Notes under the pieces: generated by a model
Seen by the model: only the letters and a program-made list of their open reading frames with translations
Told to the model about the DNA's origin: nothing
The model's database searches: none
Shown: positions 3,491-47,664 of the stretch, in pieces
How the letters are laid out: the number at the start of each line of letters is the position of its first letter
How positions within the stretch are numbered: the stretch's first letter is position 1
Position numbers and translations under genes: made by a program
Source: Marsupella aquatica
Taxonomy: Eukaryota > Plantae > Marchantiophyta
Reading direction: 5' to 3'
Assembly (NCBI GenBank): GCA_973895155.1
Contig: OZ316894.1
Coordinates: 13,370,828 to 13,434,827, forward strand
DNA length: 64,000 nucleotides

Positions 3491-15327
<11,837 letters not shown>

Positions 15328-17908
15328 CGTTTCGCCTTCCTTCAACCTACAGAGATCACACAGGTTAAACCAGAATGTAACCCTGTGATGAAAGTTCACG
15401 AATCACAAACTTTGACGTTACTGTTGCACTTCTCATACATCAGAAACAGTCTTCAGAAAGTGTAACAAAGAGAACCACAAGAAGCGAGGGGATTTGCATG
15501 TGAAAGTCGCTAATGCCCGAAGAGAACAACAGGGAGAACCACACACAGCGTATCGAGCTGACGCCAATTGTGAGTTCATCTAACGAGGCTCATGCCACCT
15601 TGTAGAGACAGTTGCAACATTAAAACATCAGGCATTCCTCGAGAACTCAACATTGTATGCCTAGCTGCAACATCTCGTCCCACTGAAGTGATTGACCATC
15701 AAACATTTATTATCAATGTCGCCTACAAACCTCCCTATACGAATAAAACTAAACGAGAAGATAAACGTCGATTACCTTTGCTCACCAAGCTCGTGGATGC
15801 ACAATAGTCGATGGTAACACAATTCAAAGCGGCCAAGATCAAGCTACACGATTCCCCCGTGAGCTCGCCCTGTCGCATTGTCCTATTTTGCTGGAGGGGC
15901 TCTCGAAGGATGTCCACCGGACAAACTAGGAAAATCGTCCACGCTCGTCACATGTGGAGTTTATCCAAAGGAACTCCGGCCACTGCACAAAAGTCACAAT
16001 TTCGCTCAGCAACTCAAAACAAATCTCAAACATGATATACTCAATCGCAATGGCAACGGAGCACGAGCAAAGCATTGTATTCGCGATCTCCTTATCTCGG
16101 CTTAGCCAGGAATTTTCTACAACCATCCCATAGCCCTTCCGAAGGAGGTCACGATCATGTATCGAGTGGCCCCTAACACAACGGAAGGTTCCTTCCAACA
16201 TTATTGTTGACCAACAGAAGTTTCCTCGCTATGCGTCAAGAAAACGCACGGACCCGAACAACATCGCTACCTTAACATGAGTACAGACAGGGCCACACAG
16301 GACTGTACAATAGGCTGGCTCGCTCTACAAAGAAACTCTTGTATGTCGAACAAGTCAGCATAACATTGAAGATGTAACCAGCTCGGAAAAGAACCTAGAA
16401 CTCGGGAAAAATTCAATACTACAATGTTATCAAAGCTAGATTACCCATGCTCGAGGGAACCACTTCTGTGCTGCACGTCAGGTAGTCAACCGAAGGAAAC
16501 AAAAAGACAGAAATTCTGTAGCAATGCAGCAGATCAAGTATGCGCTCACTATGCAATACAAATAACGAAAAGAACCTGAGAAATGCTAATTCGTGGACGC
16601 AGCGTATGTAGCAATCACAACTACAGTTCAAAAAGCAAATTCTGAATTCTGAAGTAATAGACTAAATTCAACACCACCGTCGTAAATCAAGACAAGCGCC
16701 ACAGCATCTGGATATCCGACTCCGTTTGAGTATCGATGTACCAAAGCTACACCTTACAGCAGCATTTGGTGATGCGAGGCTAGCGCAAGGCAATTCCGCG
16801 TCTGTAATTGCGGAACGGAAAATACAGGAAGGAACAGCACTCAGCTGCTCGAGCCAATTTGCGACCGAAACAACGACGCATTTTTTCTCTGCTACTAACA
16901 GTATAACCAATCAACCCTGTACCTCAGATTAACACTCCACCAACGCTAAAAGCTCCAAGTCACAGTCGAAGTTGGCGAACAGACCAATTTCGTAGAGAAC
17001 TGCTTATACTCAGTACTGAGGACAGGTCCCGGCTCTGAAGAAACATGATAGGTGAAAAGGGGGAAGGGAGTAAGCCAATCCGTTCTGTTCTCGATGACGC
17101 AAACGTGATTCACGATTCCGTCGGATGTTTGACGATCGACACCCAAACTTCTCGCATGCCAACCAATCTTGCTACAGAAGGACCAATCGCCCGATGAAAC
17201 TCGAGCAGTATATTTCAATCTCAGTCACTTAGCCAAGGCAGGAGTTTAGAGCACCACCTACCCAGTAATGATCGTGCCCGAAAGTTTAGTTGATTCCGTA
17301 ACTATCGACCAAAAACCGACAACACCTCAATTCACCAACAATCTCTTCTCTCCAGTTCTGTCCTGTGCACAACAGCGAAGCCCGTGTCCAAAACGAAAAG
17401 CGAAACTTGAGGAGTAACGAGACTCGTTTCCAATCCTTCCTCTGCGCCAATGCTACGGACCACGGAAGAAGGGTGGGCGTCAGAGGTACGAAACAATCCG
17501 AGAAAACATCACCAGAAGTCTACCCTTGCCAACGTCCAAGGGTAGCAAATCGAATAATGTAGTGATAAAAACTCTTTCAAATATCAACCGGGTCCCAAGG
17601 GAAATGAAAATGACCAGGCACACTAAGCGTGCTTGCTGCGTCTGCTGTGATTAGGAAGGTAGTAGTAGCCGACGCGCCCATCCGACTGCCAGGGGGTGAA
17701 AGCAGCATTCCGTAGTTGCAGAGCGTGTGGATGTAAGGAGTAGTGATGACGAGGGGAGGTACAGGGACTTCTGATGGGGTGGGTACGCAGCTAGCCAACC
17801 CGCCAATGGATATAAGCAGAAGAAGTAGATAAGTAAATTGTACCGACTGTGTCTCGGTCGTGCATTGGAGGGAATGCGGGTCCCACACCCCCACTTTTTC
17901 TTCCCGGC

Positions 17909-20100: not shown

Positions 20101-21991
20101 CTCAGTTCAGTAGAAGTGGTGCATGAGGCCGGATTTCAAACATTGGTATTGTGATAGTACAGTGTTGCTATTTTGTCAAGGTTGTTTCACAATTTTGTGA
20201 ATCACAGTTGAAATGTGGCAATTTGATTCTCTAAATTGCATTTTTGCGTTTGCCAAACTGTGATAATGGGATCCAGGGACGGTTAATGATATGGTATGTT
20301 CAATCACCGTGAACCAGGATGAGACAAACAATTGGGTGAATTATCACTGAACATCATGCATAACACACCCCTGCCGGTAGTCAAACATCAAAATGTGGAA
20401 ATGCACTACGAGCATTCATTGATTTATTGAAAATTATAATGACTATCATTGTATGGAATGATAATAATAGTACACCTGACAATTTAGACACCAGGAAGGC
20501 ACACCGGAAATAATAGTACAACATGCTTTTGCCTTCCCAACTTGCTCTACCCTGCTGGTAATTACACATGAAAATGTGGATTAATAAAGTGGATTAACAT
20601 TGTAATCAATGAGCACCAACTTTTGGCAATAGCAGCACGAGAATGTGAGTGTAATGGATAACTTGGTGCGCATGATACATGATCGGCGTCCTCTTGGAGA
20701 AATGGCCACGGATGTTTGCCTTGCTATGAGAGAGTATGGGGCATAGCACACTCAATGCTGCTGGCAAAGTTTTCTGTGAGCTGCATGTTGTGAGACTGTA
20801 TTTTATGGGCGCTGTTAATATGCAAGGGATGCCTCATCGATGGCTTTCAGACTCGCCCATTGTATCACTACAATGTTGAGGCCCTGAGGTCCTAGGCAAC
20901 GTGAAGACCTTCCAATAGAGCAAGACCATATTGTCTCCTCTCCTACAAGGTCCTCCGCCTTGCCAAGTTTGTGCCAGGCCGGAGTGTACGCAAGGTGTTG
21001 CAACTCCACCAGCAGAGGTTAGAGTTGCCAAATTATTACGTATTCCTCCATGTTGCTCGGTGAGTGCCAAGATTCCTACTTCCCCTCATGAGAAACTCAT
21101 CCTTCAAGCCAATATGCAAGCGGTGGGACTGGAATTCCTCTTTAACCTACCGTGGGACATAACTACTACATGGATCCCTATTCACGGATTTCATTGCTAG
21201 ATCCCGGCCATGAACTCACCAATATCAGGGCAATGGACAAGTGATGTAATTTCAAAGGCTTATCAGGTAGTGCTGATGGGGCGCCAATGTGTGATGGAAA
21301 TAGTGAGTTCAAACCATTTGTTGAGACCCAATTCACATCAGGTTGGGCCCGACCTCCATGACAGGAAACAGGAAATAGTGATGATCATAACAGGAAAAAT
21401 AGTTGAACAAAACAGGAGACTTGGTACTATCATTCACAAAAAACGGCTTAATTTTGGACCAAACCAAAGAGGTCAAATTCAACATAAACTCAAAAAGATG
21501 GGGAAAATGACAATTATCGGAAGACGCCTTTACTAGCGCTTAGTCCTAACCAAGCGTTTGATACCGTTACAAAATATCATTAACAAAATACCCGCTCACC
21601 ATCTACCGGAATGATCAGAGGATAATGGTTTATAAGGCAAGAAAAGGTCATCCTTGAGAATGCATGCGAAAGAAATCCACACGTTCAGACCTAGAAACTA
21701 CAAACTGCAACCAAGTAAGAAAATGGAGTCTAGCGCCGGGCGCTAACAAAACTGAAGGCCAAGTGACGATTTAATACAAACAAATCTCCGTTACCCGTAC
21801 AATGAAATTTACACATCCGTAAAATTGTAAAAACAAATTAAGTTTTATGTGCAACCCACAAAAGATTGAGCCATGTTGAAAAGAAACCAAATGTTGTTTA
21901 CTAGCGCCGGGCGCTAACCAAAACAAAGTTACCGTTACGAAACGACAAGTCCTACATACCCGTTGAACGTAAACTAGAATACTAAGCCTTA

Positions 21992-24900
21992 CTATAAACC
22001 ATCAGCATTTTGCCTCCCTAGAATATAACGCAGTTCCGCAATGGTAAGAATTGGTTGGCTTGGGAGGATATTGTCCACAAGATCAAGCTTGCAGATAACT
22101 TTGTAAACCCAGTACAAGTGTTTACATGGCATGAAAGGTTTCCCTCGAGAATGTCGACGAAAGAAATCTTCACAAGAGCAACAAGGGAAAATGCAAATTT
22201 GCACCCAGTAAGTATTTGCAGTTCATAAATGTGCATTTGTGCGTATCTGGAATCGATTCCCGTATGAATTTCCCGATGAAACTTCCATAGTTTTGATCAA
22301 AGTCATTGTTTCTTTCGTTGCTGATTCAATCCTTTTATGATATTCCTGAGTGAGATTTGATCTAGAGCTCATCGCACGCCGTTTCTCATTCGAAAACGGA
22401 TGTTAACTTGTGCAAGATCGATCTTTTCAGGAAAAACATCAATGTTGATTCTCAGTTCAAATGGAGAAGGACAACGTGAAACAACACCTCCTCTCGAGAC
22501 TTCAATGCCCTGCTCTTGAAGGAAATTTAACTCCAGACTTGAAAGATGAGTGCCTTTCTATACTGGCAAAAAGTCTGGGCAAGTAGGGAGGCTCACAATA
22601 CCTCGACAAGGGCGGCTCTTCCAGCAATCACGAGTGGGGCAGAACCAGACAAGCTCTGGATGGTGTTCACCTCTGAATAAGTTGTAACCTTTGACGACTA
22701 TTCCGACAACCCCTGCATTTGAAGGATATCCGACCTTCTTAATTTGATTATGACACTCATCTCGATCACAACTTCCAGACAACGTCCCATTACACTGTGG
22801 TCCAGCACCGTGTCTGGAAACTCTCCGCAGATGCCAAGACCCGGGTACAACGTCCACTTCAAAAAGCAAAGTGTCTACAGGAATGAATGGAGTGGTGTTC
22901 GGAGCACTTTTTGGAACTTCGGAAGATTGAGTGACATGATGGGAAACTGGAGAGCCACTTTCAGACAAATCGATAATTGGATTCGAAGGAGGAGTTCTAA
23001 GTGTCGGAATGTGCTCAAACTCGGATGAGTTCAAATTCTCCTCTTGCAACCTCGGGTGTTTGGTGTAGTTATGAGAACTGTGTCATGTCGATGGGAGTCT
23101 TGTGGAGAGACGTTCCCGGTTGCCGGACCTTTTCTTTTCATAGACTTTGTCACAAAATCCCCATTCAACGGAGAATCCCTCTCCAAATTAAATTCTGCTG
23201 CATTTGCGAGTAACATATTAGAGGCTTCTTCGAAGAGTTTCGGGGACCCTGCCTGGTCAGCCGAACGAAAAGTCAATTCAAACACTGTTGGACCAGTACC
23301 CCGATGGAGCCCTTCACGATATGCTATATAGGCTGCTATTTGTGAGATTGCTCTGTTGTGATCGGTCTTACATCCTTCGAACAAACCAACTGTTTTCTTT
23401 CCCTGCCATGCTTTCATGATTCCATGAACAGCTTCAGAACCAGAGCAATTGGGAATCATGAAAAGAGTTTTGTCAAATTCAGTACAATATATCGAATAAA
23501 AAATAAAGCGGAACTTCAAAATGGGCGGACGAAAGGTATGAATGTTTTTCATTATGATTGTGAAGATTGAAGACGCTATCAAGCTATTCGTACGTTAGCG
23601 CCCGGCGCTGGCAAAAAACATGAGTAAAGAGCACAATTAGAAAAGGGAGATTAATACTAGCGCCTGGCGCTAGTATACATTGACTCACCAAACGTATGAA
23701 ATTTCCCCACTGACGCCACCTCACAACCCACCAAGCGATCCATCCTTGCAACATTCTAAGTTTCCCAGGAATACAATTTCCAGATCTCCACCATGAATCA
23801 ATCTCTCGTGAAACCCTGTAGGCTTCCACAAATGAAGCGGCATTGCGCAACTTGTCCCAAAGGATTCGATGTTCAGCACGTTTTTCTTCAAGTACTCCTT
23901 CGATAGAGTGCCGATGCAAAGACTGATAAAAGTGGAATGCATCCGATCGCTCTCTCTCCGGGTTTGGATGGCCGTCAAAGAAGACATTCCTAACCGCTAT
24001 CCATCCTGCCTGAGCATTATCCGCCATGAAACCATGGATTTCCACACCCTTTAAACCGTTCTCCAAAGCGACTTCGATCATCAACCTCCAAGCTTTCTCA
24101 AGCAATGCAGTGTCCTCTGCTTTGAGTTCACAAGTAAATATTGTGCACAAAGCTTGATAGTTATGGTCATACACATGTGCACTAAAAGTACTCCATTCTT
24201 TGGACATCCTTTTCATCACGTCAAAGCTCACCCATGCTCCTTCTAGAGGCCCCCCTTTCTTCATCTGACGCAGTAAATCTACTCCCGATCCATGACCTTT
24301 GATAGTCATTTTGAAAATATGTGCTCTATCACCTTTACAGCCCTGCCCAGGAAGAAGATATCTTTAGAGAAAAGGAAACGTAACATTCTTCTGCATGTGA
24401 ACCAGATATTCCAAATCACCTCGACCAACCTGATCTTTACGAACGCTCTTAAATAACGCAGAAAACTTCTGAGGCCTTGAAACGAGCATAAGTGATTTCC
24501 AGATTTCTGATTCTTCTAGCTTTGAAATGTCATCCACAGACTCACCTATGGCATCCATTAAAGATCCAATGATCTCATTTTTCAAAACGCACGGTGTAGA
24601 AGAAGGATACTTCTCATGCTGTCTCTGTATTTCTTCTATTGCTATTTTCTCAGCACTTCTAGACCAGACCTTCCGACATGGATGGTTGTGCACCCCCATA
24701 TGGATTGCAAGTCGTGACATGTGTTTTGTAGTGTCATTTTCAATCAAAACTTGCGGGTACATATAAAACATTTTTGCTGGACAAGACTCAACACAAAATG
24801 GAACTTGAAGGCAATAGCGACAAACAATTCCTCCAGCATCGATCAACCTCCCAGGACAATGCTGACCAGAGAGCTTGGGGGTCCCATCCCATCCATTACA

Positions 24901-25719
24901 GTTTCTGACTTGAGTCCTGGTGTAAAACTCACATGCTCTATTTCGGCATTCGAGAGAACCACTACAGCTTACTTTCCCAAACTCCCACGTCTTCTTCGGA
25001 ACAACATTAGCAGAAGTAGGAAAGATTCTAGTTCAGAGGTAGCAGTCCTTGGATCGATCCATGTTTCGCAGACGATCCCCTTTCGAGCCAACACCTTGAA
25101 CAAGTGGAAGCTCAAATATGGTATTCCCATTGTACTCTATAGGTAAGCATTCAACCTGTTTGTGAATGAATGCCTCGGACCTAACAAAGCGCGATAACTC
25201 ACTTTGTCCAGTTGACTTCAACAAGGCATCAAGTGCGCTTCTTCTGTACACAACCAGAACAGGACGAGTTAGAGTGTCTCCATCATCAGACCCCTCCGAC
25301 GCAATCAATACGGGGGGTACCTGGGGCGTCAACAAACTGGTACTGCCGCCCTCCTTCTTGACCTCATCGCCCTTTGAGATTGGTGGAGAACCCTCAGAGC
25401 ATTCAGCATCGGACGTAAGGTCAATCACATCGTGAGCCACCTGAGGCCTCTCCACCTTGACCTGAATGATGTCCCTTAGTTGAATGAAAATCAAGTACTC
25501 CACGCCATATTCGAGATTCCAAACAACGTCCTCCGCTTCAGTATCAAAATGAGCGGGCCCATCGTTCAAAGTTCTGACACTCTAAATATGTTTTCTCGTC
25601 ACCCCAAATCTTCCACACAGGTAATTATCACTAACACATTTCCTATTTTCGGAAATTGACACAGGGATCATCACAACGTCACCTGTGTTCGGACACATTA
25701 TTCGAATAATGCGAGACAT
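21992..25719 (-). pseudogene. MULE-like DDE transposase with N-terminal Cys/His region and C-terminal SWIM zinc finger, disrupted
   Basis: Colinear ORF pieces: C..C/HNHP region (VCRYC...HMGVHNHP), putative D1 WVSFDVMKR, D2 FMADNAQA, (C/D)xxH-like SDAFHF, putative E in SGSEAVH, and SWIM CSCEDF...PCKHLYWV. Several in-frame stops and frameshifts. Confidence 0.7.
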
Positions 25720-27112
25720 TCTAACTCCCCAAAGATAACCGACTACATAACATAATGATACATGGTAAAATGAAGCTAGATTGTATGGTTGAGGGTTTCT
25801 TCTTAATCCAAGTCTCAAACGGAAAGAGCCGTCGAGCGGTTATAGGATCTGTTGGGTACGGATTTTCTTACCGTTCAAGAAACGACAAAACCATCAATTT
25901 GGCGGATAGTTATTGTTGAATTAATTGTTTTGAGGTTGTAACCGACGGGGTAATATAGTAGCGCCAGGCGCTAGCGTTTTCCACATCTCAAAGAGCCCAA
26001 AAATAAACAACAAAAGCAAAGATCAACGGCCATTTTGGTTACTGACACAGGTTAACATCCTACGATAGCTACTCATTATGACAACATTTAAGCTGAAATG
26101 TATCGGGTTTCCTTGGAAATAGCGTCTTATTTATGGCAGACGACAATATTACCCTCTTCTAATATTAAAATTGATCCATTTGAGCTCGCGTAGAAGTTAT
26201 CATAATACTAGCGCCAGGCGCTATCATAAAATTGATAAAAATATCAAGATCTAATGGTCATTATTTATTGAAACTCGCAGATTTTGGGTCCAAACATCTA
26301 AGCCATTTTGAAGTGTCTTGTTACTAGCGTCGGGCGCTATTATTGAAATCTACACATTTAAGCCCTATTTGAGACTCAAAGAAAAATAGCGCCTGGCACT
26401 TTCATAAAATTGATAGAAATAAAAGTTGTTTATTACAAAAAAAATCTCGCTTCAGTCCAATCATTCGCATGATTTTTTAGTACAATGTTACTAGCGTCAG
26501 GCGCTATTATTAAAATCCTTCATTTCAAGATATATTTTAGTCTAGCATTATAATAGCGCCAGGCGCTAATATTAGATCGAAGTAGAATATTGACATAAAC
26601 GGTCTTTTTAAACGGTAACTTTGACCGTTTATCGTTACAATTTAGAATGAATTCCTGGATAAATATATTCACGAGTACCTATAAACGAGTTAAAATGTGA
26701 CAAGTGTCAACCTTTAGTAGGTCTGCTTTTGGATGCTCGTGCTTTTCGATGTGTACTTGTCATACATGTCGGTCTGCCACAGGGTATATCAGAGAAGATC
26801 TTTTTGCGATAGTGTCTTCCTTGATCGTTAGAACGACCTCTGCGCCCATTTAGGGTCATCATCAATCATTCAATTCGTCCATATTAGTACAGCACCACAA
26901 GAAACGTTGCATCACGCGAGAAGCACGTTGCAGTGCGGGTTCCCCGTGTGTGTGCATCTTAAACAAACATGGAGAATCATTCTCCTGGCCATTCTGAAAC
27001 ATCCGAGTCCTCATTCTCCGGATCAGTTTATACTCGGAGAGTCACTCGTTCGTCTGCATCAAACTCTTTGTGAAACATTAGTCAGGCGATTCCAAAGTCA
27101 AAACGAGGCATC

Positions 27113-30100
27113 ATGGAGTCTTACGGAGATTTTGCGATGGAGGACGGGGGCGAGGGAGTTCTGTCCATGGATGCTGTGATCAAGAAATATGCAATGTTGT
27201 TTGGAGTTGATTTCAGAGGGGAGAAGAAAGAGCCGCCGCATATCCCTCTTTGTCGGCTTGTTCACATGGAAATCGTTCGGACTCTACAGAAAAATAGTGC
27301 ATCTATCGATAAGCTCAAGGATTTGTTTCGGAGCTTTGGGTACAACTCTTCAATTGGGATGCGGTTTTACGTTCAGCCCACGGATTCAGAAGGAGTCGTT
27401 CAATTCTGCACGCCTGAAATTTGGGAGACCTGGGATGCTGTTTGGGTTGCCCATAATGACTTGTTTGAAGCAAAATGTGCTACTGATCCAGATTTCCACA
27501 TTCTGAAGGATAAGATGTTCTGTGTTCTATGTTCTATGTCTGGGAATCATTGACTCTACTCGTGGACCCAAGTAACAAATGAGAATCCAAACAATATCAA
27601 GTACCATCTACGTGTTCAATGCACTGTTTTTAAGGGAGATCGAGGTTCTCTAGTTGAGCTTGAAGTGGCTATGCACACGGTGAACCAGTAAGTATTCCTC
27701 AAGTTGCATAAACGCTATTGAATTTGGTCGATTGCGCTTGATTTTTGCAAGGTTAGTTAGCGCCAGGCGCTAATATTTGCCATTATATCTTACAGGTTAG
27801 GGCAAGCTGTGGTGGAACCATTGTGGATTCTCGATGCCGATAGAATCAATCGGATTTTAACTCATGACTTGGAGGCCTACAAGCCGATCATCGACCCCGG
27901 CAGCTTCAAGCGATTCCAAACTGTTCGTGCCAAGACAAGAAAGGGGTCTTGGTATACCAAGCAGATGCCATTGGAAGCATTGGTTTACATCTTGTGTGAA
28001 AACAAGATTAAGTCGTATTCACTTCAATTTAAGCTTGACTTGGCTGCTGCAACAAGTGAAGGTCGCCCGTGGTCATCTGAAGAGACTGGTAAGCGGTATG
28101 CTACCATGATGAAGGAGGCAACGAAGGAGTAGAGCACAAAGACATCCAAGATTACCCCCCTTATAAGCCCAGAGTTTGGTGATTTTCTGTCAACTTGTGC
28201 AGAAATGTACATTCTTACGGAGAGGAACAAACGAGAAAAGAAGCCGGACTCTGTAGTTTGTACAATGGACCGCGCGCGTCTGTTCACTACTGTCTCCTAC
28301 TTGGATCCACAACTGCACTGTACTCTTCTTGTCGCTCACTGTACACCCAAGCTCAAAAAACAATTTTACCATCCCCCAAGTGTGAATGATGACCCTATTA
28401 AACAGTGGTGTCATACATGGCACATGTGGAGTTTGGTGGAAGGAATTGCAATTGCAATGTTATAGACATCTCTTTTGCAAGTCCAGTCGATCCTACCTGC
28501 TGATTGTCTAACGCTAGGAGGAGTGGAGACGTTTGAAGCTTTGGTCTTGAACATCACCAATGATTTCAAGACATACGGTGAAACAGTGAAGGCAAAGTTT
28601 TTTAGCACAATTTGGCAGTCCAAGTACGGAGACAAGGAAGACTATACAATTCGCAACCAGAAGCGAGCCAAGAGATATCTGTATCGCTTCTACATGGTGA
28701 TGGAGACCAGTTCTCCAGATTATTTTTGGGCTTACCCTCCTGCATTCCAGAAATGGTCCGTTCTAGAGGGGGATGCTTTTAGCGAAGTTTATTCAATGTA
28801 CCCTGCCAAAGGGGATGTTCCACCACGTGACATTTCATTGTGGGAGATAACCCACTGTCCATGGTATCTTGACACAGATTAGTGGGACACCCCTTTCGAT
28901 GAAGCTGAAAAGGATGCATTTCTGAAATTATCAAAGTCTTTAGTGCCTCAGAAAGTTCTCTCTGAAATGAAACAAGGTTTATCGGAAGATGTAGATGCCT
29001 CGGCAAGCGAGCTGTAGAAACATTGCGAAACAGAAGTTTTGCATGTAGACAGGAGTCAAAAACCCCGGGCGAAAGCAAAAGTAGACACTGGAGTAACCAG
29101 CCCATCAACGAGATCCGGGAAGAAACGTGAGATTCTTCTATTTTCCATTGGCACTATGTATTCTCTCTCCACCAGCTTGATTATGTCAGTGACTTTTGAT
29201 GAGCGCTGCAGATCAAGTTGTCTATTTATCAGTTAGCGCCCGACGCTGGTGTCCCTGATGAACAGACTCCTCCCAACACGGAGAAGATGGTGCGACCAGC
29301 AGATGCCACCAGCACGAAGAAAAAGAAAAAGAAATATTTGGATCATGGATTTTCCTCTCGGGATTCTATCGCTTCTACTGGTGTTCAACGAGATGTTGGA
29401 CAGTTCAAGTCTAAGACTTCTAGGCATGTTTTTGTTGAGTCCAGCGTAATGGACTTCTTTGAGAATGGTGTCAAATGTGGAGAAGTGGGTGAAAGACCTA
29501 GTCTTGCTTGGTCTAAGGGAGAAAGGAGTCATAAGAGGAGGAAAGATAAGATCATTTGGAGTTGATGTTGGATTCATTTACCTCCCAACTGGACTGCGCC
29601 CTTCCCTTTTAGAGAAGAAGTCTCCAAAATAGAATTCCCCAGATCACAAAATTGTTGGTTCATTCTTTCGCGCAATGGATCCCTTTCTAGCAGATGATGG
29701 TATATTGGCCATTTGGCATACCGGCGAGTATGATCAGATCTTGCAGGTCATCACCGCGAGCCAGGAGTTCAAAAGTTTCAGTGTGTGAAAACCCTGAACG
29801 TGGTTATGGGAGTTCCAATGTACATGGCCCGAAGTGATTGTCAGGTAAATTCTCTCACTCTTTGTGTTGTCCTTTGTTAGCGCCGAGCGCTAGCTAAAAA
29901 TGTTTTCATATACCCTTCGGTTAAGGGGATATTCTTTGTTAGCGCCTGGCGCTATCCAAAATTCATTGTTATGCCGCGATTGTAATGATTTTCTGGTTGG
30001 ATTGTCGGCATCTTAACAAAGGATTTTGTTGGGATTTCACAGGTTTTCACATTGAGATTGGATCTGTTCACTCGTGTTTCGTCAAAGGTTAAGGTTCCAA

Positions 30101-30621
30101 AGGACCCCAAGTTTTGACCCCTCTCTACAACTGAAGATCCTTCTATCACTAACCTTATTGGTCTCCCGAGTGTGAGGAAGGATCCAACTCCTTCAGCAGC
30201 GTTTGCTGGCAATGGACGCTTGTCCGTTGGGTTCATGCAATCTGTGTTAGAGTTAATCACTCGGCCAGATGATATTGTCATGGACTGGACTGTGGGTTCG
30301 GGAAGTACATTTGTTGCTGGTGACTATTGTGGTCATTTTATTCTTGGTATAGAAAACCGAAAAGAGTTTGTTGAGATTGCGGAAAAGACATGGATGGAGT
30401 TATTGATTCCAAAAGATGTCAGTTCCTCATCTCCCGCTAAAGATGTGGGAAGAAAACAAAAAGATAAAGTTTGCTCTGTCTTAAATTTTGACTCTGAAGA
30501 TGAAGAGGAGGGAGATGATGTTGGAGATGATGCTTCAAGAGGACAAGGAGAGGAAAATGAAGGAAACGAGAAGGAGAGGCATACGATGGAAGAAACAGAA
30601 GATTCAGATTCTTCTGAGTAA
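27113..30621 (+). pseudogene. Spliced, decayed gene: N-terminal ParB/Srx-like domain plus C-terminal beta-class N6A/N4C DNA methyltransferase-like domain
   Basis: N-terminus: HIPLCRL...IDKLKDLFRSFGY...KMF...SGNH(R>stop)LYSW. Introns at 27688-27795 and 29845-30042. Motif-IV region VDVGFIYLPTG (29561-29593) is followed by FFRAMDPFLADDGILAIW, and motif I/II region GRLSVGFMQSVLELITRPDDIVMDWTVGSGSTFVAG...ILGIE lies at 30214-30354. Motif IV precedes motif I, the beta-class order. Acidic tail follows. Confidence 0.62.
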
Positions 30622-31338
30622 TGCCCGTAAGCTACTTCACTTTACATTATGATTCTGGAACTGTCCCATTTTCATTTTCAATTCTAATGTGGTTCCGTTC
30701 CTCTTCCAGATCGGAGTGGAATCTTCAAGAACGTTTTGATCTTCGGAGGAAATACTCGAAAAAAGTTCTCGTTTCTCCTCAAAAGCCTTTCGTGTTGCCC
30801 TCGTATGCAGAATATGCTACACGCAAAGAAGAACAGAGGAGAACACTTACTTGGGAGAGTAAGGGCTTAAGGTTAAGGAGAGGTTCAGATAGGAAATTCA
30901 TCCATCAGCCTTTACTCAACGATGGACCTAAAGCGAATTTATAGATGATGAAGCTGAGTCTACCGATAGGTCTAGCAGTAGCAAGTCCGAGTCTTCTGAC
31001 TTGGAGTAGGTTGAGTGTGAATTTCTAAGGTTTTCTTTGGAACCTTGTACTAGCGCCCGACGCTATTAAACTGGATGTTTGGATCTGAGCCTTTAAAAGA
31101 GATAGACGCACCCGAAGTCTCTTTCCTGAGTGCATATTTGTGCAGATATCAGAAATGCATGTACTCGTATAGTTGTACGGTGAATAATTATACCTTCTGT
31201 ATGTACGTATTTTTGTTTGTGGTTGATATGATTGTTTGGACTCTCTCAAAGTGTAGTGTTTGTTCAACTTCAGGTTTGTTCAACTTTGTGTTTGTTCAAC
31301 CCCAAACGCATTTCTCCCTTTCATTTATGTGAGGCGCC

Positions 31339-31440
31339 GACTCACCTCTTCCCTTCGTTTCGTTTGTGCATTGCCCAGACTCACCTCATCCCTTTGTTTC
31401 ATTTCTGGTCTGCCCGAACTCACCTCTTCTCTTCTCCTTG
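31339..31440. repeat. Three ~39-bp-spaced copies of actcacctc(a/t)tc.ctt just upstream of an ORF
   Basis: gactcacctcttccctt, gactcacctcatccctt, aactcacctcttctctt. Confidence 0.7.
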
Positions 31441-31470
31441 AGTTTGGCATCCGTTGTTTCCATCGACTCC

Positions 31471-31917
31471 ATGGATAAGGGGAAGCAAATAGTGAAATTG
31501 GAGAGCCGCAATCCGCCAACGGCAATGGTTTGGAGGTCGATTAGAGATCCGGGTTTAGATTTGACTCCGTCTTTTACGCAATGCCCAGAGACGTCGACCG
31601 AGAGGAACAGGTTGTGGCTGGCCCCGGATGAGGGTATTAGCCACAAAACTGGACACCTTCCATCGCGTGATCCTTTGCCTCCACTTCCTTTCTGAGAGAG
31701 GTTCTCTGTTCACGACCCAGATCCTTCCAATGTGTATCGGGTGGAAAGGACAGCTTTTTTCAGAGACATCCAAGCAGACACCGGACGTGTGAGCTTTTCA
31801 GATTCGAACATCCCGAACGACCGGAGTCGGAGTCGCTATCCCGGACCTCTTTTTTTCTGGATCGAGAGGATGGGTTTCGACAGGATGAGGATAGGTCAAA
31901 GCTGGATTGGACGATGA
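31471..31917 (+). pseudogene. Small unknown ORF (MDKGKQIV...) inside the MULE-like element, with one internal TGA
   Basis: ATG at 31471. The frame continues past TGA 31693-31695 into the 31732-31917 ORF. Flanked by palindrome copies at 31051 and 31965. Confidence 0.35.
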
Positions 31918-33560
31918 CTGCATGTCTTCTACGTCCTAGAGAATGTGGATTCCTTCCTCGACACTAGCGCCTGGCGCTAGCTTTCATCTCATCGTTGGAG
32001 TCGTTCATGAGTTTGATTCATGTCATCTTTTTGAACGGGGGCTCCGGTTCGGCCGAGTTAGCTTTATTGCTCCTTCTATTTTATTATTGCATTAGGTTTT
32101 TTGAGTATGTTATTAGGGTTATTTCTTTTTCTCGAAGGTTATGGACTTTTATTACCTTCTGGATATCAATGTAATTTTTTTTTCAAGTAGTGTGTGTCGC
32201 TAGCGCCTGGCGCTACTAATATATGTTCTATTCTCCTCCACAATTATGTAAACCCGCCTCTGTAAAATTGTGTCTTTCAACTCTCTTTTTTCTAGTGTCG
32301 TCCAAATATGCTGCAAATACTATTAGTGGTTATTTTATTGTTGAAATTGGTTGTTTCTTGTTACTGGAATCTGGTTCCTGTCAGTTGGAAACCCTCTGAC
32401 AAAACAATCTTTAAGCTTGATCCGATGGATTTGGTCTTACCGAGCCAGCCAATTTTGAATGTCGGAGAACTCCAGTTCATCATAGGAAGGGAGAATCTGC
32501 ATGGTTTATAGGAATTTGGATCATTCGACGATACATTGAACGGACATTTTGTTAATGTTGTTTTGAACGGCAACAAACTCTTGGTTAGCGCTCGACGCTA
32601 GTAAAACTTGTCTTTCCATAATTGCTGTATAGAACTCTAAACATATTGGAGTTCCTATTGAAATTGGTCTCCTTTTTTGTCCGTAATTATGTCATCTTTT
32701 GTGTATGCTAGTACCAAATCTCCTGTTTTGTTCCTCTCTTTGTCCTGTTATGATTGTTACTATTTTTTGTTTCCTGTCACGGGGAAAAACCTCATCAGGT
32801 TGAAAGAGGAAGAATGGATGGCCAATTGAGCATTGTGAAGATACTAAACATTTGAAGCCCCTTTTGGAGTTCCTTATTCCAAACCTGCTCCACAAAGACC
32901 TACTAGAGTGACACTAGCGCTTGCCACTACCATTATAGTTTCATTGAAATGAAAGAGGAAGATCAATCCCAGAGCTTATAACACATTACCATTACCATTA
33001 CATTACCAATTTGGCAAAGATCCTAGGAGACATAGTTATGACGTTAGTTGAGAGGCTTGTACTAGGGCAAAATCCTATGTACATTGCTCCTTACGTAGCA
33101 CATTTGTATTGGAGTGAGGACTGACTCACTGCCATGAAGCAACAGGCTTTCCGGGGAGCATTTCCTTGGATTGCAATTCATTCTCCCAAGAGGAAAGTTG
33201 GGATTGAGGCCCACCTGACTGAATCACCATCTGCTGCTGAAAAGAGGTATTTGAGTTGTGACCATTCATCAACACACAAAAGGAGTTATCTGTCAATGTT
33301 AACTGTTGAACCTCCTGCAGGGATTTTGGATAATGCGCTCATTGATTGTGTAATGTCCATTTTAACTTTTGAGAGAAATGATATTTTGAGTGAGTTGGAT
33401 TGCTTGAAGTTGTGTTTCAACTTATTATGTGAGTGTGACATACATAACAAAGCATGCATCCCCTACGGCTGGTCAGTTGGCATACAAGGAGGCAAAGGAA
33501 AGTCGGTCAATTCTCAGTCCTATTAATAATTGTAGACCTACCAGTGTGAGCGTCACAGGT

Positions 33561-36254: not shown

Positions 36255-36565
36255 TTATGCGCTCTGCATAGTTAAGGATACCCGACAATTTACCTTATCT
36301 ACTTGTGCTGGAAGGTCTAACACTAAAGTTCTAGGCGAGTCGAATGCTCTTAGTGAGGGCAATCCGCTTTGACCTGCTTCATCTTTGATGTACCTTGCTA
36401 GAGTATACAAGATATATTCATTTTGAGTGGTCCATAATGCTCCAACCTTCTTCTCAAGCGGATCTAGGAACAACAACTCTTTTCCATCATGTAAATGGAC
36501 CACTGCCAACACCCAATGCTCCCTGTTTGCCCGGTGAATAGGGACTGATATCTTCCTTGGAAATG
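36255..36565 (-). pseudogene. Ulp1/C48 SUMO-protease-like fragment (TE-associated), truncated by LINE-A
   Basis: VPIHRANREHWVLAVVHL...FLDPL...PAQVDKVNC gives the H, D, Q, C catalytic pattern. The ORF's first ~15 aa come from the LINE-A 3' UTR/A-tail. Confidence 0.8.
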
Positions 36566-38131
36566 TTTTTTTCAATTTATTTAGATAATGACCACGAAAA
36601 CCCCGTGGCAAGGAAAAGCAGGAAGAATCTCACCACACCAATTCAGCAACCCCCAACCGGGAGGGCAAAGACAACAAGTGGTGAAGGCCCAATAGACCAG
36701 GCTGTCAACCCTATACTCGTGAACCACACATATCACCGAGCGAAAGCATAACTCACTAACTACATGCCCCAATGCTTAGCAGAGTTCTCAGCTAGATGTA
36801 ATCCAGATCTGTCGGCTGTTCAGCCAAACTATTCTTCCCGTATAAGTATCTCCTTCACTTGTAGCAATCTTGTGTGTCGCCTAGTTGGGGGCAAACACAG
36901 TCCCACCGCCAATGCATGGTCAGCCGCTTTTGAGAGAGTAAAACGAAGATCAAATGTCCTACAGCCATTGGACTGAAACATATGCACATTCCTACTCTGC
37001 CATAAGGACCAAATAATCTGATAGAAAATAAATAGCTTGGCAACTATGCTGTGGTCTTTCTTGGCTCAAGTAGCCTATCCGAGTAATCAGTAAAGGTACC
37101 TGAAAACAAGCTGCAACTAGTGACCACTTAACGTCGCTTGGCATGAGCACATTGCACAAAAAGATGGGAAATAGTTTCTACTTCTCCACTACACAGTTTA
37201 CAGTACCCCTTCTCCTTTATCAATGCGTCTGGCTCGCACACCAGTAAAGAGACCTGAAGCCAGTATCCTCCAAATAAACGTCTTAGCATGGGAGGACAGG
37301 TTAGAGTGCCACAATCCACTCCAACCTGCATTCCATTCACCTTTTGTCTCGTGCTATCCCAAGTATGATTCAGGCTTTTGTAGTCTCTAACAGGGGGGCG
37401 AATCAGCATGTACGCCCTCAGATTAGAGATCTTGAATATATTGATAGGATCATGCCTGTCAGCCCATCTCCAACAACGGGGACCAGTGACATAATTCATC
37501 CTGCAACCATCTATTGCACTGACCTTCCTTAAGAACTCCCTCCAACAAGCTTTCTCAAACAAAGTAAAGTCGCAAAGGTGTTCTAGTTGCTCATATAGAT
37601 TGCGCCATTCATTCCGTTTGGTAGACCATAAATCCTGGATGCCTCTAATACCCAGTCGGCCACACAACACAGTAACCACTTCAATTGGTATTGGGCCAAG
37701 ATTGGAAACCGATGAGAGAGCGGAGAGTGTCCATGGTATTCCACCTACCAGGCATCATATCACTGGGTGAAAAGATCAGGTGGGAACAAAGCTGAACCCA
37801 CGCTTTCCATAGTCCTCTAGTATATGCGATTCCATTAAAGGACCGAGGGCTACATAACAACATTTTATCCTGGAAGGAGTACTTATTCATGCGTATCCAC
37901 TTATAATTCATCCAACCCGCTAGTTTCAGATTTTCTGCAAAGAGACATGCCCATTCTGTATCCGGGCAATCCAAAGCCCTAGTGAACCATTTGGATAATA
38001 GAGTGTCGGAGTGGCTGCAAAAATCCTTTAGCCCGAGTCCCCCCTCCAGCCTAGGTCTGGCCATTCTAGCCCATGAAACAAGAGGGATTCTCTTGCCCCC
38101 TTCCGGAGTGTATCCCCACAAAAAGTCCCGG
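36566..38131 (-). mobile_element. LINE-A (L1-type) 3' part: ORF2 C-terminus, zf-RVT, 3' UTR and A-tail
   Basis: RDFLWG..GGKRIPLVSW..RPRLEGGLGLKDF, CKLCSGEVETISHLFVQC and IFYQIIWSLWQSRN to a stop at ~36829; aataaattgaaaaaaa tail. Homologous to 51190-52525. Confidence 0.88.
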
Positions 38132-39724
38132 TGTCGTCGGGGAAAATATTTGACAAATGAAGTGGAGTATGCTGGATCAGGTCGACTTGCTTTAAGTTCA
38201 GCTTGAGATGTATTAGTTATTTGGATGAGTAGTGAAAGAAACAAAACTGAGTTGAAGTTGAAAGGTAGTAAGACAAAAGAGGAATAAAAGAGCTATGGCT
38301 TTTAAAAAGCTTTTTGAGGGGAATTTTCTCCCGTTGACACGTGGTTGAATATGAGACTTTGAAGTTCATAAGGGCCATGAGGATGGAACGGTGATGCCTG
38401 CGATGGAGGTTTGGGTGAAAAGAAGAGAGAAATGGTCAAATGTGGGTGTGTGTCGTGGTGGTTATTGTTAGAAGACTTGGTCGATCTGTCAGGCGATGGG
38501 GGCAAAGTAGGTGGGATACTGAGGTTGGGGAAGGAATTCTGGAGGCGTATCGTGTATAGTTAGAGTGGAAGAAAGAAGGGAGACGACGAGCTTGGGCTGA
38601 GGAGTTATTTTGTTGTTATTATTATGGAGAAGATTGAAGTTTTTGAGTGAAGCGGAAACAATTGGCTGATGAAGGGCAGAAGAGACTGAAAACTTCTGGT
38701 GGCAAATAGAGTTGTTTGCGAGGCAGTTGCGGGAATGAATTTATTGAAGTTCAGGAGAGAAACAGCCAGATGTTTTCTTTTGAGGTGAGAAAAAATTGGA
38801 TCAAAGTCTGATAGAAAATGAGAATGGATCGTGAGAGGAATCGGGAAGTGTAGTGGAGAAGATTGCGTGTTGGAATACGGAGGACGATAGTACTATGAAG
38901 AATTGAAGAGGGTTACAAGAAAAGAGGAAAGGTAAATGAAATAGAGAACAAAAGGCAAAAATGAGGAATGGGAGGCTAAGGAGATCGATAAGGGAATTCT
39001 GAGGAATGCCCAAAAGGAGTTGAGAGCTATTAAAGAATGCTAGGGACGGACTGATGAGCTATCCACTGAATTAACGGAGCTGAATAAGTGTGCTGGCTGT
39101 ACTCGGGTCTGGAGGAGGGAAAGTTAGGATAGATTGATGGTTAAATAGGATGCTAAGTAGATTACTCCTTATTGAGGGAGTGCAACTATCGTGGTAAGAA
39201 GTGAAATCGAATTCAGTGTGGCTCGGAGAAGGAAGAAAATCTGGAACCTATTAGGGTTGGGAACGCAAGGAAAGAAGGGTGAAGAAGGAGGAAGATCCTT
39301 GTTTCCTCGGTAAACTTTACACTGGATTCTTGGTTTCCATAAGGCAAGTAAATTCAGAGTAGCAAGCGCATTAGGAGAAGAACTTGATTACACCCCGGAG
39401 TGTAATTGGTGATTAGAAGAAGCAAACACGACTGTAGCAGAAAAAGATTTCAAGTAAGCAATCGACCTGGGAGGACATCAGATCAGGCTGGTGGTGCAAA
39501 GACAAAGGGATTACTCATACAGGAAGAGAATTGGGTGGAGCAAGGATCGAGAAGGGCGGTGGAAGTGCCCTGGTGAGAGGTGGTGAAGAACGATTGAGCC
39601 TAGGGACTCGCTGACTTATGGAGATTACAAGATATAGTAAGCACATTACCCCTGTGGGTGGAAGGCGATCACAGTGATCGATAGTAGACTTACCAAAAAG
39701 TGTCGCACAAAGGACATACTTAAG

Positions 39725-39841
39725 CCCCATCTCATCCAATCGCCCCAAGGAATCCCCATCTCATCCAATCGCCCCAAGGAATCCCCAGTGCGACATTGGC
39801 GACCATACTGGGGATTCCTTGGGGCGATTGGATGAGATGGG
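39725..39841. repeat. 29-bp tandem duplication plus perfect 35-bp inverted repeat (39755-39789 / 39807-39841) around the Ty3 PBS
   Basis: cccatctcatccaatcgccccaaggaatccccagt, a 17-nt loop, then actggggattccttggggcgattggatgagatggg. Confidence 0.95.
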
Positions 39842-42800
39842 TGACTATGATGAAGTTGATCGGATCTCAAGCATCGTCATGTTGATGATGAGAACCATAA
39901 GGAAGGAAGAGCTTGAGGCGGAAAGGGCGAACAGGGAAGCGAATAGAACTACTCGGTGTCTCCAAGAGGTTCTGAAGGAGAATGGGCAGTTCAATGGGAG
40001 AAATGTGACAAGCTACCTTAAGTCTTACTTGACAAAAGGAGCTGTCTACAAGTTGGACGAAGGGACGGCGGTGAAAGAGTTCATGGTGCTGGTTGAGAAG
40101 GAGTTGAGTTCGACGGTGTGGACCATCGTTGAGTCAGCTAAGGGCTGGGATGACTTCGACCATAAGATGAAAGAGGAGTTCCAAGCAAAGGATGCTGATC
40201 GGGTCACGCAGGCTACCTTCTTGGATTGGGTGAATGATAGGAACAAGAAGCTGAAGGGGCCGCAAGAGCTCCTAAGGGAGTTCAAGAGAAAGGTGTCTCG
40301 GTTATCGAAGCGGGATGTGGGAATCATCAAGTTGCAGCGCTCGACGCTCTTCTTGAGGGCAGCCGATGAGGACCTTCGAGAGGAGCTTGAGAATGCGATG
40401 GAGTTGCTGGAACCTTCGAGAGTTACCTTGTCTAACGACTGGAACCAAATTGAGAAAGCGGTGTCAAAAGTGAGCAATTGACACCGGCGGCAAGAGCTAG
40501 ACAAGGAGGCTACCACTCTCGACCTAAGGCCGCCGGAACTGACATTGAGGAAAGGGAAGCGAGAACCAGCGAAGGATGAGATCAAACCATCGATGGATGA
40601 TCTCGCGGAAATGATGCAGAACTTGAAGATCTTGGTGGCACATGCAGTCGAGAATCCAAAACCAAGGGTTGCGAGTGCTCCCAAGCGGAAGCGAGAGTTG
40701 CAGAGTTGGCCATGCATATGATGCAACAACAAAGAGCATGACAAACGGGAGTTCCTGGACCTAAGGGAAGCTGCGGATAAAGGGCTGATCAAGTTCATTG
40801 GTGAAGTTGGTCAGAAAAAGATATTGTTTGCCGATACTGAGGAGCCGATTCCATTCAACTCCAACAAGGGAGGCATGAAGGCTTTGGCTGAGAAGCGAGC
40901 TGGGAAGCGAGTCAAAGAGGCTTCCTCTTTGCACCTGGAAGCGAATGTTTACAATGTGGAGTTGGATGGCCCCGTGATGGAAACAGACAAGTTTTACAAG
41001 CGCTTGGCGGATCTGGTGCAAGAGAGATCCGGATGGAGTGACCCGGTGCTGATCAATGCGATAACAATTGAGGTTGGGGCTAGTTGGGATGCCTCGGTCA
41101 AGTCAAAAAGGAAGAAAACCGACAAGGATGACACTTCGTCTCAATCAGGGGAACGAGAGAGGTGGGATACTAAGACAAGGAAAGAAGGGTTAGGTTCAAA
41201 GAAGAGGAAATGAGCGAGAAAGAGCCAGAGAAAGGGAAACCGATCAGGAAGGACCCGGGCTGGGTGCTTGGCAGGGATGTTGACCAGGCCATGTACCCGG
41301 AGGTTGTAGCTGAGAAGTTCTGGAGCCAACGGGCTCAAGGGTTTACCAATGCTGAGTTCTTTGGCAGGATGAGGCGGGAGATCCAGGAAGCGATCTTGGA
41401 GAGATCCAAGAGGAAACGGATTTACAAAGAGGGCCCTCACACCTTGATGGGGGAGGCTGGCAAGACGGAAATTGGGAGTTTCTGAACTTACACTGCTGGG
41501 GCATCCATGGGTCCAGGTAGCAAGCTTGCTGGCCCCGAAGAGTCAGACTTGGGGAAACCAAAGAGGGTCAAGTCCCTTGGAGGGGAGCTGATGGACGATG
41601 AGTTCTTTGATGCGGAAGAGGAGCTCATGGACTTGAACGATGAGTTCTTCGATGCGGAAGAGGAGCTCATGGGAACCGGAAGCGAAGCTGAGTCTGTGGC
41701 AAACAGGGACCCGACTGAAGGGAAAGAGCAAGAAGGCATTACCGCACAATCGAGGACCATTCATGTCATGCAATGAAAGGAAACGATTATGCTTACCGAG
41801 ATGGATATTGGGCTTGAGCAAGTCCGGAGAGCGAGTGCCAGTTAGAAGGAATGGAAGGCAAGGTGCGGGCACTCATTGATACTGGCTTGGAGATCAACTT
41901 GATGGATCCAAAGGTGTTTCAAAAGGGGAATTGGCCGGTGGATAATGAGTTGCTTTGGAGTGTGAACTCAGTGAGTTTGATGAAGGACTATCTTTGGGGC
42001 GGATGTCCGAATGTGATGGTGAAGTTCGGGAATGTCAAGCAGGCTTGTAACATTTTTGTTCATGAGCACTTGTCGTTTCCAGTGATACTAGGCATGTCGT
42101 TCATCACTGAATGGAGGATGGAGACGAAGGTTCTGGACGATACTACCTTCATGGTGAAGGTTCGGAGCAAAGATGGGAAAGAGGTGGTTCAATTTCCAGC
42201 TATTTTACTTGGAAACGAGAGGAATAGGAAAGGGTTGAGGACTCAGAGTGCTGACTCTGGTCCAGGTCCGGAAAACAACTTGGCACTTTGCTGAAAAGAG
42301 TGGATCGGTGGAGTGCTTGTTCCTTAGCTCCTTGTGAAGGGGAAAACACGATGGATAATGGAGAGGATGAGCCACTCAAATGTGCGGAGTCTAACTTGGG
42401 AAGGGACAAGCTGGAGAAGGAATTGGAAAGGCAGTACTCGTCTATGGTCGTGCTTGTATACTTGAGTACCAAATACAAGATGGTCGACAAGAAGGTGAGG
42501 CCGGCGGCGATACCTTTGCCGGACGATGCGATGGAGGTTATAGATCGAGCGAGATTGGAACCTAGGCTGAGGCCAACTGATCGGATAGGGCATAAGTTTA
42601 CTCAAGAGAGTTTGGCAAAGCTTAAGATTGGTTCGGATGGGTTACTTACGGAGGTGGAGCAAGTGGCATTTCAAAAGATGATAATGGAGCATGGCAAGGC
42701 ATTCTCGTTTTTGATTGAGGAGATTGGTTGTGCGGATCCGAGATGGTCATCTTTACTGTCCCTCATGTTCCGTGGGATCTGAAACCGATTTCGGTTCCAC

Positions 42801-46526: not shown

Positions 46527-47052
46527 ACGACAGATGCTCGGGATTTGGAATCTCTAAACAGTGCGGGAGGTTCCTAGCCAGGATGCTCGGGCCGCATCCT
46601 GTTCTTGACCTACTTTGATTCATTCTACTGGATGAGGGAGATTTGATGACAAAATACAGAGTTGGTATGGTCTCAAACCTTCTGGAATGGAGAGAGATGG
46701 ATTTACAAGGTGGGACTCTCAGTGTTCGCGAGATAATCGCGAGATGGATGTGCTGGAAGATAGGATGGATGAGCCTACTTTGGAAAAATTTTAGGATGAC
46801 ATTGGTGACCGCTGCGAGCTTGAGCCTAGAAGTACAGGGGACAATTGCTACAAGGGATCGGTCCACAAGGAGGCTGAACTGGTTCAGCGAATGGTTGGCG
46901 CTGCAAAAGAGAAAGAGATTGCTGCTTGTATCCCAATTCTTAGAAGGATCTGAGATCTTTCTATTCAAGAATGGCCCTCAAAGCTGCATACCAAAATTCA
47001 GTGGTCGCTGGAGGAGGCAACAGAGACCGTAACGGAACTTTTCAATTGCACA

Positions 47053-47664
47053 ATGATGTGCTATTTCACAGACAGAGCCCCCATGCTTCCGACCTTCAAA
47101 TTATGGGTGAACAAGACATTTGTGAATGAAATGAATTGGCTGGTTTCCCAAGTTAAATTTGTGGGGAAAAGTTTCTACATGGTCACTTTCAGAGACCCTG
47201 CACATAGAGACTTTGCTTTGGTTGGCGCCCCGTGGTTCCTAGATAGGAAGTTTGTATTCACCTTCCCCTTGGATCCGTCTTTTGACATCAGGAGCAAATC
47301 CTATACAATGTTGCCAGTTTGGATTGAAATTCCTTTTAGAGCCCTAATCTTGGAGCCCTGCCGGAGGAAGCTGGCTGCTTCCTTGGGAGACATACTACAT
47401 TATATCCAGGGTGATGACCTCAGCTCTTACCCACATGATCAAGCTTGTGTGCTTTGGGACACACATAGAGAAGTGCCACAGAGTGTGGAAGTGGAGATTC
47501 AGGATGGTCTGTCAATTTGGCAACCGGTGACATTCAAAAATATCCCATTCCATTGTTTCAAATGCGGTAAAAAGGGGCATTTGGCTCGAGAGTGCAGGGC
47601 AGCAGAAGATTATGAGCCAGTGGGCCCCCTGTATCTACAACGGACAACATCCCCGTTGCTGTGA
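47053..47664 (+). pseudogene. LINE-B ORF1 core (DUF4283-like plus CCHC zinc knuckle)
   Basis: FYMVTF...APWFLD...LPVWIEIP...CFKCGKKGHLAREC. Confidence 0.88.

Follow-up and report, generated by a model that had tools for sequence, protein, structure and literature searches.

Within 64,000 nucleotides of the genome of the liverwort Marsupella aquatica (contig OZ316894.1; hereafter the window, i.e., the whole stretch analysed) there is a series of short peptide segments, at 29410-30390, that resemble the motifs of beta-class N6A/N4C methyltransferases (MTases), with the tetrapeptide YLPT where such enzymes would have the catalytic DPPY of motif IV. The question raised by this locus is whether YLPT marks a divergent active enzyme, a domain that lost its catalytic residues long ago or the recent decay of an ordinary enzyme in a dead gene copy, and what a protein of this kind might do for the genetic element that encodes it. 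To our knowledge, there are few known cases in which eukaryotes use amino-methyltransferases of bacterial origin. The sequence comparisons described here show that the feature is real and suggest that it most likely represents an anciently disarmed MTase domain in the accessory gene of a transposon.

The element and its accessory gene

The domain lies within a predicted gene of an 11,447-bp DNA transposon, the features of which are collected in Table 1. Each copy of the 10-bp direct repeat that brackets the element is placed exactly 10 nt beyond the inverted homology, symmetrically at both sides, and in a control for the target duplication a shared 10-mer occurred between random 40x40 zones in 2 of 2000 trials. 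The target-site duplications of Mutator-like elements (MULEs) measure 9-11 bp, a range that includes the duplication seen here. The terminal inverted homology extends over ~265 bp at 73%, with outermost 10 nt that are unlike one another; part of it is paralogous coding sequence, and a description of the ends as plain terminal inverted repeats was dropped on that account. A broken gene on the minus strand, which is divergently oriented to the plus-strand accessory gene, exhibits a D..D..[C/D]xxH..E pattern that we take, by eye, to be that of a putative Mutator (MULE DDE) transposase, and the Mutator-like label of the whole element is likewise a tentative one, given by its anatomy and motifs. 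This gene gave no notable match in Pfam, NCBIfam, PHROG or PDB, and a third, ORF-like region gave no Pfam match; the paralogous 3' segments of the transposase side and of the third gene have palindromes on their flanks. The element family is multi-copy, with contigs from four public runs that represent two coded organisms and two studies. Its surroundings in the window are intron-containing land-plant DNA with a PAS and kinase gene (~3.8-15.4 kb) and LTR and LINE retroelements.

The accessory gene is predicted to consist of four exons (~1,030 codons) on the plus strand, of which exon 2 (48% to P0001) has many relatives in the protein search. The copy in the window is a pseudogene, with seven internal stops and two frameshifts (~29463 and ~29768). 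All five peptides quoted in the first-pass annotation were found, in the order given there, and they lie in alternating frames because of the two frameshifts and a 198-nt GT..AG intron-like gap. Among the rows listed, other genomic copies have 29 extra nt at ~29463, encode Trp at 29630 and have one extra nt at 29768. The related protein P0008 (74% identity) is open over all three of the window's breaks, and its end coincides with the predicted donor site. The open frames of relatives diverge at the exon 3/intron point of the window (29844/29845). In the annotated Riccia proteins P0154, P0155 and P0152 the motif-IV part runs on into sequence colinear with exon 4, and Calypogeia P0144 likewise joins motif IV to motif I, all of these being gene predictions; exon 4 is itself colinear with P0154 from the exon's first residue (28% over 110 aa, E 7e-9). 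From these relationships we infer splicing of exon 3 to exon 4 at the predicted junction 29844/30043.

Table 1. Coordinates of the transposon, its genes and their principal motifs in the window
Feature	Position	Strand	Remarks
DNA transposon, 11,447 bp	21346..32792	.	Inverted ends and 10-bp target duplication; Mutator-like by anatomy
Left target-site duplication copy, 10 bp	21336..21345	+	CATCAGGTTG; longest direct repeat between end zones
Right target-site duplication copy	32793..32802	+	
Left degenerate inverted end	21356..21616	+	73% to 32519-32782; starts 10 nt inside duplication, like right end
Right degenerate inverted end	32519..32782	-	Pairs with 21356-21616 at 73%
Palindrome TAGCGCYNRGCGCTA, 15 bp, many copies	21534..32600	.	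Introns, spacer, ends
Broken transposase-like gene	22558..25581	-	FDVM..ADNAQ..DAFH..SEAVH; Cys/His-rich N-terminus; Mutator-type by eye
Accessory exon 1 (predicted)	27113..27687	+	DGQHR/ParB-Srx-like domain
Family motif DGNHR	27539-27553	+	Exon 1; reads SGNH-stop in this copy
Accessory exon 2 (predicted)	27796..29126	+	Helical region, conserved, no known family; 4 internal stops
Accessory exon 3 (predicted)	29233..29844	+	Lys-rich stretch, HxxVxSS motif, catalytic MTase half; 1 stop, 2 frameshifts
Motif IV, YLPT	29579..29590	+	Aligned with DPPY/DLPY
Phase-0 intron (predicted), 198 nt, GT..AG	29845..30042	+	Contains two palindromes
Accessory exon 4 (predicted)	30043..30621	+	SAM-binding half, acidic tail; 1 internal stop
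Motif I, DWTVGSGST	30283-30309	+	Exon 4
Motif II, ILGIE	30340-30354	+	Exon 4
Third broken ORF-like region, no family	31470..32510	+	3' segment paralogous to 21941-22102 (-)

Identity of the methyltransferase-like domain

The SAM-binding half of the domain matches the Pfam family N6_N4_Mtase (PF01555) at 32.4 bits (cut-off 26.7), and a piecewise scan recovered the same family at 31.1 bits in the one piece of 13 that matched. Its best sequence matches in the PDB are all MTases, i.e., DpnA (E 1.2e-5), CcrM and MboIIA; the last exon matches 283 phage records, and six of the seven PHROG families that it matches at E<0.005 are named methyltransferase. For the motif-IV half, the window sequence alone did not rise above shuffles when compared to a profile built from 93 beta-MTase domains of phages (55/150 and 113/150 shuffles were equal or higher). 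When the two catalytic columns were masked, a post hoc block test selected GVDVGFIYLPTG and AMDPFLADDGILAIW, and 1 of 300 shuffles scored as high; the two segments are exactly those that had been quoted from the letters of the window. The profile of the family aligns with the phage beta-MTases at 97% hhalign probability, in a stretch of 194 columns that spans motifs IV to II, and none of 60 column shuffles equalled its motif-IV half alone, whether the four rows with Asp were included or left out, although the "non-Riccia" set in this test contained one Riccia fragment without motif IV (P0152). It is from the block test and the profile match that YLPT can be placed in the DPPY/DLPY column, as the first-pass annotation had proposed, and its assignment of the peptides to the beta-class N6/N4 MTases, with their motif order, is borne out by the PF01555 score and the collinear match. 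The segment HVFVESSVMDFF, which had been counted as part of the same template, is conserved across the family but falls outside the local match to beta-MTases, on its upstream side, and its membership in the template is unsupported. On these comparisons, 29410-30390 is the C-terminal beta-class MTase-like domain of the predicted accessory gene.

The domain shares the order of motifs (IV before I) and the 194-column collinearity with the phage DLPY/DxxMGSGST beta-MTases, DpnA, CcrM and M.MboIIA, and the DLPT of Riccia and the DWTVGSGST of the window resemble the DLPY and DFTMGSGST of phage types. It differs from these enzymes in lacking the aromatic residue of motif IV (all 16 family rows) and the Asp (the window's clade), and in its introns and long N-terminal fusion. 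The motif that precedes motif I is also different, in that the HPTQKP type is absent and is replaced by GNGRLS in the window and by GGRRKC in Riccia; motif I itself varies from DWTVGSGST (window) to DWSVGEGSS (P0144) and DFAGGWGAT (Riccia). Structure prediction for a 107-aa single-sequence fragment of the MTase domain reached a pLDDT of 43.6, too low for a fold to be read from it.

Other searches were less informative. A word-index protein search gave one match for the accessory middle region and none for the motif-IV exon, for which the later phmmer matches reveal the limited sensitivity of that search. There was no match in a metagenome scan with the motif-I exon or in a viral scan with query A1, and PDB profile searches with queries A3, A5 and A6 gave nothing relevant. 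Two genome-contig loci that were matched lie in unrelated genes, and ESM Atlas leads to TRAPP and penicillin amidase were below the level of recognition and were rejected.

Motif IV across the family

A phmmer search of 1.84 billion representative proteins yielded 226 matches at E<=0.001, and the family rows were drawn from the best 150 of these 226; canonical DPPY members may occur among the remainder. The alignment of homologues by which the first-pass annotation had hoped to recover a consensus comprises 16 rows, the window and 15 relatives (near-duplicate cluster members excluded), and gives the pattern x-L/M-P-x among the matches listed. In the same rows position 1 is occupied by Y (7), D (4), A (2), S (1), C (1) or F (1), position 3 is P in 16/16, and position 4 is T (11), N (2), L (1), C (1) or S (1) and never aromatic; the canonical form, (D/S/N)-(P/L)-P-(Y/F/W), is found neither in YLPT nor in any of the 16. 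The four Asp rows among the matches listed are all from Riccia sorocarpa (DLPT, DLPT, DMPT and DMPS), and the other 12 include two from Calypogeia fissa. In an exon tree the 12 Asp-less rows occupy one long branch apart from the Riccia D rows, with support of 85/90 on an unstarred branch of a tree whose bootstrap had not settled; a "1 change, 100/100" value for the D group was set aside, having been obtained by comparison with phage rows only. Internal paths within the Asp-less clade amount to ~2 substitutions per site, over which L-P-x-G, P-x-W-N and L-x-D-x-G are conserved around motif IV.

An old and conserved pseudoenzyme is the most likely reading because, relative to 93 phage control domains with D in 88 and S in one at position 1 and Y in 91 at position 4, the Asp has been lost in 12 of the 16 rows and the aromatic residue in all of them. 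The freedom of position 1 to be Y, A, S, C or F implies, moreover, that there is no catalytic constraint at this site. The Asp of CcrM hydrogen-bonds the target amine (PMC10406627), and the change of SPPY to APPA abolishes the activity of the bdelloid enzyme N4CMT (PMC8885841). We therefore consider it probable, with the alignments as the basis, that the MTase domain is a pseudoenzyme. What speaks against this is that a recognisable SAM-binding half, above the Pfam cut-off, would be seen in an active enzyme too. Of the two alternatives that had been raised at the outset, a dead module is favoured for the window's clade, and a divergent active enzyme remains mainly for the Riccia D-clade.

YLPT had also been described as one G>T change away from an ancestral DLPT. 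DLPT does occur, in Riccia sorocarpa KAL3677308.1 and KAL3683583.1, but it is itself without an aromatic fourth residue, and the ancestor is thus real, yet old and non-canonical. As damage to this particular copy the change does not hold, since YLPT is common to other copies in public runs and to relatives at 35-76% identity. Contigs that match the window without a difference at 29577-29630 had depths of 146 (X1) and 68.5 (X4), and the most divergent contigs 16-23, depth being distinct from copy number; the comparison lists differences only from ~30 nt inside the ends of each piece, and variants at 29579 are not directly listed.

Amino-MTase domains, active and inactive, are known from other eukaryotic settings. 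Motif IV is reported to be TSPPY in Marchantia DN4MT1 (10.1101/2021.02.12.428880) and SPPY in N4CMT (PMC8885841); both are beta-class domains of bacterial origin in eukaryotes, as here, but by their descriptions they are active host enzymes, whereas the present domain is transposon cargo without the motif. Inactive amino-MTase domains are described for DIRS1 retrotransposons and METTL14 (PMC4738411). These resemble the present case in being conserved domains with substituted catalytic residues, carried by a mobile element in the case of DIRS1, and differ from it in MTase group (PCIF1-like, MT-A70) and class of element.

Possible roles of the accessory protein

The N-terminal part of the protein offers one clue to its role. 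Of 27 aligned N-terminal rows among the matches listed, 22 have DGNHR. The DGQHR model TIGR03187 is matched by four of 27 members, below cut-off (best E 0.001), and the N-terminal profile matches eight DGQHR proteins at E 5e-4 (30% hhalign probability; 0/40 shuffles as high); against 32 canonical ParB domains it was not above shuffles (5/40 as high). Motifs like DGQHR have been tied to the ParB/Srx fold in an earlier study (PMC4619093), and with moderate confidence we regard the exon 1 domain as ParB/Srx-like, putatively of the DGQHR/DndB branch. A second structure prediction, for the N-terminal fragment, had a pLDDT of 42.2, and Foldseek with this low-confidence model returned no match at E<=0.001. 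The whole architecture, i.e., DGNHR domain, helical middle, low-complexity linker and MTase domain, is displayed by P0154 (KAL3677308.1, 1,207 aa); the fusion is seen in full-length Riccia proteins, and the Riccia and Calypogeia relatives are known as predicted proteins alone.

A second clue is the palindrome TAGCGCYNRGCGCTA, which occurs in the element in 11 exact copies, 16 with up to one mismatch and 19 with up to two. A single copy with up to two mismatches lies 123 nt beyond the element (32915) and there are none elsewhere in the 64 kb, and no copy arose in 30 Markov simulations. The copies are confined to non-coding parts, one of them being placed where an intron meets an exon. In the relative L001, which shares the first intron and has 57% aa identity in exon 1, there is no copy of TAGCGCYNRGCGCTA; that intron contains instead 17 copies (<=2 mismatches) of AAGCCYnnRGGCTT, 11 of them with <=1 mismatch as compared to 0.05 expected, spaced by ~20 bp, and it was from L001 that this pattern had been taken. 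Its array might be a tandem insert of unrelated origin, and the co-variation of protein and palindrome is that of two elements.

The targets of VANC proteins, from the VANDAL elements of Arabidopsis, are family-specific short motifs in non-coding regions (PMC5735166). Here too, a Mutator-like element has an accessory protein and an element-specific non-coding motif that differs between related elements (two elements in our case). The VANC motifs are described as non-palindromic and same-oriented, in contrast to the palindromes seen here, the sections available mention no MTase fold, and binding has been shown for VANC and is inferred in the present case (PMC5735166). The closest precedent that we know of is the pair of accessory genes PAG2 (PF01555 plus SET) and PAG3 (ParB-like plus 2OG oxygenase, next to inverted-repeat arrays) of red-algal Plavaka/Mutator elements (10.1101/2025.02.11.637652). 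In the red-algal elements each domain has a gene of its own, with a SET or a 2OG-oxygenase partner, whereas here, in land plants (the named relatives are liverworts), a single protein combines a DGNHR domain with an MTase fold whose motif IV is disarmed; PAG2 was compared by its description. In the literature searched, a scope without Repbase and most subscription papers, land-plant transposons that encode a protein with fused DGNHR and MTase domains are not described.

In what we regard as the simplest history, a bacterial or phage DLPY-type beta-MTase would have entered a Mutator-like transposon lineage, where the aromatic residue was presumably lost first (DLPY to DLPT) and the Asp afterwards, once and long ago, in the window's clade. 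The MTase fold may have been retained as a dimerisation or a DNA- or SAM-binding module, in a protein that would use its DGNHR domain as a switch that binds nucleotides, would recognise the palindrome specific to its family and would act like VANC or the proposed PAG3 in anti-silencing or end-pairing; silencing would then be countered or transposition assisted. The best explanation, in which our confidence is evenly balanced, combines pseudoenzyme status of the MTase-like domain with non-catalytic binding of the palindromes by the intact protein, which would help to keep the element active. Binding of the palindrome by the intact protein, as a claim in its own right and by analogy with the systems above, is a plausible but tentative suggestion.

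It is somewhat unlikely, though worth weighing, that the transposase or the third gene binds the palindromes and that the MTase-fold pseudoenzyme serves as a scaffold, a SAM sensor or a decoy for host chromatin factors. The data on motif-IV loss fit this arrangement equally, the accessory protein revealed no DNA-binding domain that could be recognised, and the paralogous 3' segments of the other two genes are flanked by palindromes. Binding of element-specific motifs by transposases and by TnpA is known from plants (10.64898/2026.08.24.746577). The L001 array, however, sits within the accessory gene's own intron, and ParB-family proteins bind inverted repeats, PAG3 adjoining such arrays (10.1101/2025.02.11.637652).

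The domain might also be a divergent active amino-MTase with a non-canonical motif IV, writing 4mC or 6mA on the element (e.g., at the CG or an A of the palindrome) or modifying RNA. RsmH-type N4C RNA methyltransferases function without PPY. Motifs I and II are retained in the variants listed above, as is the Asp in the Riccia proteins, and a 4mC enzyme of bacterial derivation exists in liverworts (10.1101/2021.02.12.428880). We nevertheless find activity quite improbable, given the variable position 1 in 12 rows and the uniformly non-aromatic position 4 among the matches listed, the replacement of HPTQKP, and the loss of N4CMT activity when both residues are removed (PMC8885841). Recent decay of an ordinary DPPY/DLPY enzyme would suit the stops and frameshifts of this copy and its private differences, which are mostly of the C>T/G>A type (15 of the 21 listed are non-synonymous, a count from listed rows in which records are mixed), but is very improbable in view of YLPx in six other proteins down to 35% identity, the match of other genomic copies to the window across the motif and the lack of a position-4 aromatic in any relative listed.

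To return to the pseudoenzyme reading, the family appears as a graded series from phage DLPY through Riccia DLPT to YLPT, ALPT and CLPN. An intact full-length member, KAL3677308.1, is available for expression and a candidate DNA target is defined, so that the role of transposon-borne MTase domains, whether to write, to read or to scaffold, becomes testable in plants. We know of own-transposon protection for VANC-type proteins only. A more far-reaching idea, which we consider unlikely, is that liverwort Mutator-like transposons have built their own sequence-specific anti-silencing system from prokaryotic parts, a DGNHR/ParB-Srx nucleotide switch fused to a repurposed MTase fold that reads the family's palindrome, in which Riccia DLPT proteins would still write a non-canonical 4mC/6mA mark and YLPT proteins would be pure readers; if true, VANC-like self-protection would have arisen in land plants a second time, independently, and the family would form a natural series from writer to reader. 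More generally, PF01555 matches in liverwort proteomes are not necessarily 4mC enzymes, and some of them carry the automatic name "trimethylguanosine synthase".

Ends and spacer of the transposon

The 3' segments on the side of the transposase-like gene and of the third, ORF-like region of the putative Mutator-like element are paralogous, so that the inverted ends of the element are in part duplicated gene ends. The spacer between its divergent genes, with its palindrome-centred repeats, is likely to be a bidirectional control region. In L001, a relative with a homologous accessory gene, the palindrome arrayed in intron 1 differs from that of the window.

Naming of the Riccia proteins

Three Riccia sorocarpa proteins related to the accessory protein (P0152, P0154 and P0155) carry the automatic UniRef name "Trimethylguanosine synthase", which looks wrong, because Pfam yields nothing beyond a weak match to N6_N4_Mtase.

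Surroundings of the element

The host gene is presumably phototropin-like, the Ulp1-type protease fragment is probably cargo of a different transposon, and the perfect repeats may be short LTRs or assembly features.

Features of the window and of L001
Feature	Position	Strand	Remarks
Host gene	3800-15400	-	PAS and protein-kinase exons (Pfam matches)
Tandem duplication	5816-6113		149 nt, perfect
Paralogous coding stretch	21941-22102 / 32401-32562	- / +	transposase-side / third-gene 3' segments; 50% aa identity over 54
Spacer repeats	26159-26588		three to five, ~60-170 nt, each centred on a palindrome
Single palindrome copy	32915-32929		2 mismatches; outside element, 123 nt beyond right target duplication
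Ulp1-type protease (Peptidase_C48) fragment	36255-36629	-	score slightly under cut-off; outside element
Additional LINE pieces	37128-38292	-	
Gypsy-type LTR retroelement	39678-45638	+	broken; RT, RNase H, integrase
LINE	46954-52525	+	broken; 3' of Gypsy-type retroelement
Direct repeat	54431-54574, 57578-57721		144 nt, perfect; copies 3.1 kb apart
Palindrome array	L001 551-990		period about 20 bp; intron 1
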